Part shown: positions 13,152 to 16,100 of the stretch, piece after piece | How the letters are laid out: each line of letters opens with the position of its first letter | Numbering within the stretch: the first letter of the stretch is position 1 | Assembly (NCBI RefSeq): GCF_030013205.1 | Contig: NZ_CP122648.1 | Strand: one strand, 5' to 3' | DNA: 64,000 nt | Source: Escherichia coli | GTDB lineage: Bacteria; Pseudomonadota; Gammaproteobacteria; Enterobacterales; Enterobacteriaceae | Made by a program: the position numbers

Positions 13152-16100
13152 TAAAACGTGAGGAAATACCTGGATTTTTCCTGGTTATTTTGCCGCAGGT
13201 CAGCGTATCGTGAACATCTTTTCCAGTGTTCAGTATGGTGCCTTGCACGGTAATTATGTCACTGGTTATTAACCAATTTTTCCTGGGGGATAAATGAGCG
13301 CGGGAAGCCCAAAATTCACCGTTCGCCGCATTGCGGCTTTGTCACTGGTTTCGCTATGGCTGGCAGGCTGTTCTGACACTTCAAATCCACCGGCCCCGGT
13401 CAGCTCCGTTAATGGCAATGCGCCTGCAAATACCAATTCTGGTATGTTGATTACGCCGCCGCCGAAAATGGGGACGACGTCTACAGCTCAGCAACCGCAA
13501 ATTCAGCCGGTACAGCAGCCACAAATTCAGGCAACTCAACAACCGCAAATCCAGCCGGTGCAGCCAGTAGCTCAGCAGCCGGTACAGATGGAAAACGGAC
13601 GCATCGTCTACAACCGTCAGTATGGGAACATTCCGAAAGGCAGTTATAGCGGCAGTACCTATACCGTGAAAAAAGGCGACACACTTTTCTATATCGCCTG
13701 GATTACTGGCAACGATTTCCGTGACCTTGCTCAGCGCAACAATATTCAGGCACCATACGCGCTGAACGTCGGTCAGACCTTACAGGTGGGTAATGCTTCC
13801 GGTACGCCAATCACTGGCGGAAATGCCATTACCCAGGCCGATGCAGCAGAGCAAGGAGTTGTGATCAAGCCTGCACAAAATTCCACCGTTGCTGTTGCGT
13901 CGCAACCGACAATTACGTATTCTGAGTCTTCGGGTGAACAGAGTGCTAACAAAATGTTGCCGAACAACAAGCCAACTGCGACCACGGTCACAGCGCCTGT
14001 AACGGTGCCAACAGCAAGCACAACCGAGCCGACTGTCAGCAGTACATCAACCAGTACGCCTATCTCCACCTGGCGCTGGCCGACTGAGGGCAAAGTGATC
14101 GAAACCTTTGGCGCTTCTGAGGGGGGCAACAAGGGGATTGATATCGCAGGCAGCAAAGGACAGGCAATTATCGCGACCGCAGATGGCCGCGTTGTTTATG
14201 CCGGTAACGCGCTGCGCGGCTACGGTAATCTGATTATCATCAAACATAATGATGATTACCTGAGTGCCTACGCCCATAACGACACAATGCTGGTCCGGGA
14301 ACAACAAGAAGTGAAGGCGGGGCAAAAAATAGCAACCATGGGTAGCACCGGAACCAGTTCAACACGCTTGCATTTTGAAATTCGTTACAAGGGGAAATCC
14401 GTAAACCCGCTGCGTTATTTGCCGCAGCGATAAATCGGCGGAACCAGGCTTTTGCTTGAATGTTCCGTCAAGGGATCACGGGTAGGAGCCACCTTATGAG
14501 TCAGAATACGCTGAAAGTTCATGATTTAAATGAAGATGCGGAATTTGATGAGAACGGAGTTGAGGTTTTTGACGAAAAGGCCTTAGTAGAAGAGGAACCC
14601 AGTGATAACGATTTGGCCGAAGAGGAACTGTTATCGCAGGGAGCCACACAGCGTGTGTTGGACGCGACTCAGCTTTACCTTGGTGAGATTGGTTATTCAC
14701 CACTGTTAACGGCCGAAGAAGAAGTTTATTTTGCGCGTCGCGCACTGCGTGGAGATGTTGCCTCCCGCCGCCGGATGATCGAGAGTAACTTGCGTCTGGT
14801 GGTAAAAATTGCCCGCCGTTATGGCAATCGTGGTCTGGCGTTGCTGGACCTGATCGAAGAGGGCAACCTGGGGCTGATCCGCGCGGTAGAGAAGTTTGAC
14901 CCGGAACGTGGTTTCCGCTTCTCAACATACGCAACCTGGTGGATTCGCCAGACGATCGAACGGGCGATTATGAACCAAACCCGTACTATTCGTTTGCCGA
15001 TTCACATCGTAAAGGAGCTGAACGTTTACCTGCGAACCGCACGCGAGTTGTCCCATAAACTGGACCACGAACCAAGTGCGGAAGAGATCGCAGAGCAACT
15101 GGATAAGCCAGTTGATGACGTCAGCCGTATGCTTCGTCTTAACGAGCGCATTACCTCGGTAGACACCCCGCTGGGTGGTGATTCCGAAAAAGCGTTGCTG
15201 GACATCCTGGTCGATGAAAAAGAGAACGGTCCGGAAGATACCACGCAAGATGACGATATGAAGCAGAGCATCGTCAAATGGCTGTTCGAGCTGAACGCCA
15301 AACAGCGTGAAGTACTGGCACGTCGATTCGGTTTGCTGGGGTACGAAGCGGCAACACTGGAAGATGTAGGTCGTGAAATTGGCCTCACCCGTGAACGTGT
15401 TCGCCAGATTCAGGTTGAAGGCCTGCGCCGTTTGCGCGAAATCCTGCAAACGCAGGGGCTGAATATCGAAGCGCTGTTCCGCGAGTAAGTAAGCATCTGT
15501 CAGAAAGGCCAGTCTCAAGCGAGGCTGGCCTTTTTCTTTTGGTTGGGGAGCCGGTGTGTTTGTGGGCTGGATAAGCCGCAATAGCGTCTCATCCGGCAAT
15601 TTGCACCCTATGTGTTCATCATCTTGCGCACTAGCTGCATAAACAGCTCCTGCTCTTCTCCACTCAAACGCCCCAAAAATTCCTCATCCACGCTGTCACC
15701 TATCGGTATCGCCGCAGCAAGTATCTTTTCGCCTTCGGCAGTCAGCCAGACAAAGCGTCGCCGCTTGTCAGCGGCGTCATGTTCACGTCTGACTAAGCCA
15801 CGATTTTCCATTCTTGCCAACATTTCTGCCAGCGTTGCTTTGGTGCTGACGGCTGCTTCCATCAGTGCCACCTGTTCGATACCAGGTTTATCAGCAATGG
15901 CGCGCATCACCGCGTACTGTGGTTTGGTCAGATCAGGTAACTCGTGCTGCCAGCGGGCCGTGTGTTGCTGAAAAAGCTGTCGTAACTGATGGAACGCTTT
16001 ATTTCGTAACGCCATGTAAACTCCGGGCTAATTCTCTGTCGCTATCATAGCGGTTTTTCAGTGACGAAGAAGATGTTGTTACTTTTCAATCCTTGCCGCT

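Follow-up and report, generated by a model that had tools for sequence, protein, structure and literature searches.

Positions 14496-15488 of the window (the whole stretch of Escherichia coli DNA that was analysed, 64,000 nucleotides in length) very probably hold an ordinary chromosomal rpoS gene, intact and from a natural isolate of porcine origin. Its Glu33 is the residue typical of the species and probably the ancestral one, and its substitution A239V most likely marks a clonal group without functional effect. The evidence for this reading was drawn from translation and profile searches of the gene, alignment with the K-12 MG1655 locus, long-range matching to porcine genomes, and an allele census of complete E. 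coli genomes.

Integrity and identity of rpoS

The gene is encoded on the plus strand, opens with ATG at 14496-14498 and closes with TAA at 15486-15488, and thus comprises 993 nt, or 330 codons and a stop. Translation of 14496-15488 revealed no internal stop and no frameshift. The same coding sequence is present, identical, in NZ_CP122643.1, where it is annotated as rpoS (WP_063086191.1). The NCBIfam RpoS equivalog NF004207 matched the product with 602.7 bits (cut-off 394) over positions 1-329 of 329, and TIGR02394 matched it with 478.2 bits (cut-off 378.7); RpoD, RpoH, and the remaining models each stayed under their own cut-off. Because the full-length RpoS equivalog matches lie above the cut-off, the open reading frame is not one that arose by chance. 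The uninterrupted frame and the end-to-end equivalog match bear out what had been proposed from the sequence-only reading, namely that rpoS is full length at 330 codons and free of a frameshift or stop elsewhere in the gene.

The Pfam domains of the product were all found above the gathering score, uninterrupted, in the arrangement of a group-2 sigma factor. They are Sigma-70 region 1.2 (PF00140, 46.1 bits; aa 56-88, 14661-14759), region 2 (PF04542, 81.6 bits; aa 94-163, 14775-14984), region 3 (PF04539, 76.1 bits; aa 174-248, 15015-15239), which holds residue 239, and region 4 (PF04545, 61.4 bits; aa 262-315, 15279-15440), all on the plus strand. The sigma-S chains of solved holoenzyme structures, for example 5ipl and 6kj6, are near-identical to the product. 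Regions 2 and 4 of a sigma factor read the -10 and -35 promoter elements; region 3.2 runs towards the active site, from where it passes out through the RNA exit channel. As sigma-S (sigma-38), a group-2 sigma factor, the product would bind core RNA polymerase and direct it to general-stress and stationary-phase promoters. All of the sequence elements for this function are present and are identical or near-identical to those of the characterised K-12 system, and the sigma-S of this allele is predicted to be active in vivo.

A mechanical listing of open reading frames also returned a 342-aa form that starts at an in-frame ATG at 14460, 36 nt upstream of the accepted start. This candidate was rejected as the rpoS start on three grounds: the alignment to the RpoS equivalog begins at the first residue of the 330-aa form, an AGGAG motif is placed 7 nt before the ATG at 14496, and RefSeq annotates the 330-aa form.

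Upstream gene, leader, and terminator

The locus has the conserved enterobacterial order pcm-nlpD-rpoS, with the rpoS leader within nlpD, and the alignment of window positions 10047-15534 to K-12 was ungapped. The conserved upstream neighbour, nlpD (13294-14433, plus strand), carries the rpoS promoter. Its open reading frame of 379 aa is as in K-12, and the form annotated by PGAP in the porcine genomes ETEC4079 and W13-16 is shorter (1,095 nt, from about 13339); the NlpD protein has a Gln/Pro-rich repeat.

Synthesis of sigma-S is controlled through a long leader that begins inside nlpD. The leader would span 13929-14495 (plus strand), its start at -567 being that of transcription from the K-12 rpoS promoter inside nlpD. 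In an ungapped comparison with MG1655, four leader SNPs separate the window from K-12 (-489, -294, -183, and -162), all of them within the nlpD coding region. No difference from K-12 was found between -161 and -1, the final 161 nt before the start codon, which in the K-12 system hold the translation-inhibitory stem and the region that pairs with DsrA, RprA, and ArcZ. The Shine-Dalgarno sequence AGGAG (14484-14488, plus strand) is identical to that of K-12 and is located 7 nt upstream of the ATG. Judged by its sequence, the cis-regulatory leader is intact. The interval from -653 to -490, which contains the main rpoS promoter inside nlpD, was likewise without differences from K-12. A scan of 13200-16200 for consensus sigma-70 promoters returned no site and did not rediscover the known rpoS promoter; conservation of the promoter is therefore based on the identity with K-12 from -653 to -490.

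Downstream of the gene, an intrinsic terminator with a 15-pair stem, a 4-nt loop, and a T-run was located at 15502-15545 (plus strand). Its stem is identical to that of K-12, and homology with K-12 stops directly after GGCCTTTT. A search of the whole window against Rfam at the gathering thresholds returned four tRNAs and nothing else, so that rpoS and its surroundings are without a match to a curated RNA family.

The state of the leader also bears on the idea that an intact rpoS is accompanied by altered RpoS activity because of lesions in other genes, such as rssB or those of ppGpp metabolism. An idea of this kind can be raised for any strain, given the variation in sigma-S activity among natural isolates that PMC1852560 discusses. 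The genes of RpoS regulators, rssB among them, are not part of the window, and nothing within it speaks for such lesions; the leader and the Shine-Dalgarno sequence, by contrast, are K-12-like. We consider this explanation highly improbable.

Comparison with K-12 and origin of the sequence

The rpoS gene of K-12 MG1655 (b2741, sigma-38, NP_417221.1) and that of the window are alike in protein length (330 aa), start, stop, Shine-Dalgarno sequence, terminator stem, and nlpD-rpoS synteny. Ten nucleotide differences were counted between the two coding sequences, eight synonymous and two non-synonymous, and the proteins are identical at 328 of 330 residues. That the remaining eight changes are all synonymous is the pattern expected under purifying selection. 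The first of the two replacements, Q33E, results from a C to G change at 14592, so that codon 33 (14592-14594, plus strand) is GAG (Glu) where MG1655 has CAG. The second, A239V, results from a GCC to GTC change in codon 239 (15210-15212, plus strand), with T against C at base 15211, and falls in sigma region 3.2. Alignment with a reference rpoS allele, the check proposed in the sequence-only reading, thus recovered the GAG (Glu) codon at 14592-14594 that had been read there and additionally brought out A239V, which had been missed.

From 15546 to 18429 the window carries the start of the polymorphic rpoS-mutS segment in a non-K-12 version, which comprises a gene for a MarR-family regulator (15608-16015, minus strand) and genes for hydroxyarylic acid decarboxylase subunits B, C, and D (16162-18429, plus strand); in MG1655, rpoS is followed instead by ygbN...ygbI. 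The downstream junction of the window is common to 2,143 of the 5,426 complete E. coli genomes searched, at a coverage of at least 80%, and K-12 matches the 35-nt terminator part of it only.

Bases 2-50001 of the window correspond to positions 1,120,000-1,169,999 of NZ_CP122643.1, from strain ETEC4079 (pig faeces, Belgium), without a mismatch over 50,000 bases. This identity, together with the MarR-decarboxylase version downstream, identifies the source as a natural isolate and upholds the background that had been proposed for it. No literature on ETEC4079 was found. Derivation from K-12, or from another laboratory strain that happens to have GAG at codon 33, was considered because some K-12 stocks are reported to have Glu at this codon (PMC2700278). 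It is refuted by the ten differences from MG1655 in rpoS and a further 14 over the 1,250 nt that precede the gene, by a junction behind the terminator that leads into the MarR-decarboxylase version and not into ygbN-ygbI, and by the 50,000 bases shared with the Belgian isolate; we give it practically no credence.

The rpoS DNA of W13-16, P15-25, and related porcine ETEC (WP_063086191.1) is 100% identical to that of the window, A239V included. W13-16 and P15-25 were typed as O139:H1 ST1 edema-disease STEC in PMC8798679, a paper on O139:H1 from wild boar in which rpoS is not mentioned. The flanks of W13-16 differ slightly from those of the window: its pphB is without the IS1 and the 291-bp deletion of the window, and its CRISPR array is shorter. 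The indels between the two sequences were located by BLAST in the CRISPR array and in the IS1/pphB region, and the IS1/pphB junction of the window was found as a single piece, among complete genomes, in ETEC4079 only.

Allele frequencies at codon 33

The census of rpoS alleles was performed with 55-mers centred on each SNP, which were searched by megablast against the 5,426 complete E. coli genomes. Megablast requires an exact word of 28 bases and a mismatch at the centre leaves 27 bases on each side; such a mismatch therefore abolishes the match of a 55-mer, and the search is allele-specific. The first base of codon 33 was G in 5,058 of the 5,426 genomes (with a 55-mer match of 99% or more in 4,832 of them), C in 228, and T in 128. 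Together these classes make 5,414, and precisely that many genomes gave an rpoS match of any kind. The matches listed for C were mostly named K-12 laboratory strains (MG1655, BW25113, MC4100, and DH10B), and those listed for T, likewise mostly named K-12 derivatives, included W3110, J53, EMG2, NCM3722, and S17-1. The statement of the sequence-only reading that K-12 lineages have CAG or the amber codon TAG at this position was accordingly confirmed. The rpoS396(Am) allele of K-12 (W3110, J53, EMG2, and others) affects the same polymorphic codon, with TAG at 33, whereas the window has the sense codon GAG; with G at 14592, it has neither the C nor the T of the K-12 types.

Residue 33 was Glu in 114 of 134 close RpoS proteins of the Enterobacterales. 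Glu33 is thus the species-typical residue, to which the Gln33 and amber-33 alleles of K-12 are the exceptions, and, given the majority of G among genomes and of Glu among the Enterobacterales, it is probably also the ancestral state. That GAG at codon 33 is the norm of natural isolates is already known from the literature: GAG is described as common in natural non-K-12 isolates, with CAG in MG1655 and amber TAG in some K-12 strains (PMC2700278, citing Atlung 2002 and Subbarayan and Sarkar 2004), 33E was found in every pathogenic and probiotic isolate of PMC1852560, and Q33E is called very common in PMC5491219. As the default allele, carried by 93% of genomes, E33 excludes the Q33 and amber alleles of K-12 and tells little beyond that. 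The common natural rpoS(33E) allele of VTEC/EHEC, including EDL933 (PMC2700278), and of clinical isolates shares with the window a GAG codon at position 33 as well as an intact product of 330 aa. The common rpoS(33E) alleles that are a single nucleotide away encode Ala239, in contrast to Val239 in the window.

Two further observations were made in the collection. Twelve genomes were without any rpoS match and 14 more had no single place that covered 80% of the gene; together these indicate roughly how many genomes have a large deletion or disruption in rpoS. In BLR(DE3), a derivative of the B strain, the first position of codon 33 is T, the amber-class base, and a paper on its genome (PMC5454202) is among the literature matches for codon 33.

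The A239V substitution

The T (Val) at the second base of codon 239 (15211) was found in 17 of the 5,426 genomes, all from pig or wild boar, and these are the same 17 genomes that carry the exact 993-nt rpoS allele at 100% identity. The next-best rpoS alleles differ from the window by one base and, among the matches listed, are many, from isolates of human, canine, and swine origin. Since these alleles have a single mismatch and are absent from the search with the T-allele 55-mer, that mismatch must be base 15211; V239 accordingly arose by a single step on a widespread Ala239 allele. The exact protein is recorded on 212 contigs of public assemblies, which indicates that it persists in a circulating lineage and is not a one-off laboratory lesion.

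Residue 239 is located in Pfam region 3 (aa 174-248), within sigma region 3.2, five residues beyond the segment 228-234. Deletion of this segment in sigma-38 affects promoter-proximal pausing, and the segment is implicated in promoter escape (PMC5389655). Among the 134 close relatives within the Enterobacterales, column 239 held A in 120, S in 7, V in 2, and T in 1, the two with V being the query and Ca. Erwinia dacicola. Among 122 diverse representatives with 38-84% identity the column held P in 39, A in 28, V in 12, S in 11, and E in 8, followed by C, T, I, K, G, and others. The change is conservative and the column is variable with Val as a natural residue, for which reasons A239V is most likely neutral and would serve as a lineage marker of the pig-associated group.

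Another reading of A239V is that it is a partial loss-of-function or activity-tuning change, so that the sigma-S of this lineage would be intact in appearance only and attenuated in the way that is selected under nutrient limitation. Attenuating mutations are known to be frequent in rpoS (PMC2700278), and missense alleles can be attenuated without truncation, as in PMC5405132, which reports that activity depends critically on how hydrophobic residue 128 is. In addition, A239V alone separates this protein from that of the widespread allele, it occurs in a single host-associated group of genomes, its position is close to residues 228-234, to which a role in promoter escape is ascribed, and the strong preference for Ala in the Enterobacterales (120/134) leaves room for a subtle effect. 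Against this, Ala to Val is a conservative replacement in a column that is among the most variable of the region, and Val is native to 12 of the 122 diverse homologues and to Ca. Erwinia dacicola. The allele is moreover stable over 17 complete genomes from several countries in addition to the 212 contigs, whereas the attenuating rpoS mutations of the literature are typically sporadic and strain-specific. Attenuation is thus considered quite unlikely, and neutrality is retained as the preferred reading of A239V.

Other features of the window

Within 18470-19603, an IS1 element of about 18704-19471 was found inside pphB, with insA at 19141-19416 and insB at 18719-19222, both on the minus strand. 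The insertion replaces 291 bp relative to O139:H1 W13-16, and the two remnants of pphB are treated by RefSeq as pseudogene fragments. In six related swine genomes, IS1 adjoins pphB and about 300 extra bases are kept, which suggests that the deletion in pphB followed as a secondary step next to IS1.

A type I-E CRISPR-Cas locus occupies positions 1-4347 and includes the end of casB followed by cas7e, cas5e, cas6e, cas1e, and cas2e. The CRISPR array is annotated at about 3953-4347 (395 bp), and that of W13-16 is 273 bp long; the excess of 122 bp would fit two extra repeat-spacer units. No CRISPR repeat family was reported in the window by Rfam at the gathering threshold.

Between hycI and ascB, at 37423-38150, a gene for a HigB-family toxin and a helix-turn-helix partner form a putative type II toxin-antitoxin pair. 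Four tRNA genes are clustered at 61928-62513 (Rfam); in the collinear region of W13-16, downstream of csrA, the tRNAs are annotated as tRNA-Ser and three tRNA-Arg.

Biological significance

The window represents a wild porcine E. coli with a standard rpoS(33E) allele, neither K-12 nor rpoS-null, and in this respect the result is a note on quality and provenance. A239V, on which no literature was found, could serve as a simple SNP marker of the pig-associated lineage. The chance that it modulates sigma-S is small and residual, and the substitution becomes biologically interesting only if it is shown to change sigma-S activity. Placed in region 3.2 on the arm that leads out of the sigma finger towards the RNA exit channel, it might change how sigma is released or how the promoter is escaped and thereby adjust the RpoS regulon, and it might have been fixed as an adaptive change in the pig-adapted O139:H1 ST1 edema-disease/ETEC lineage. 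We regard this as very unlikely; were it true, A239V would be a host-lineage-specific functional variant of sigma-S and not a neutral marker.
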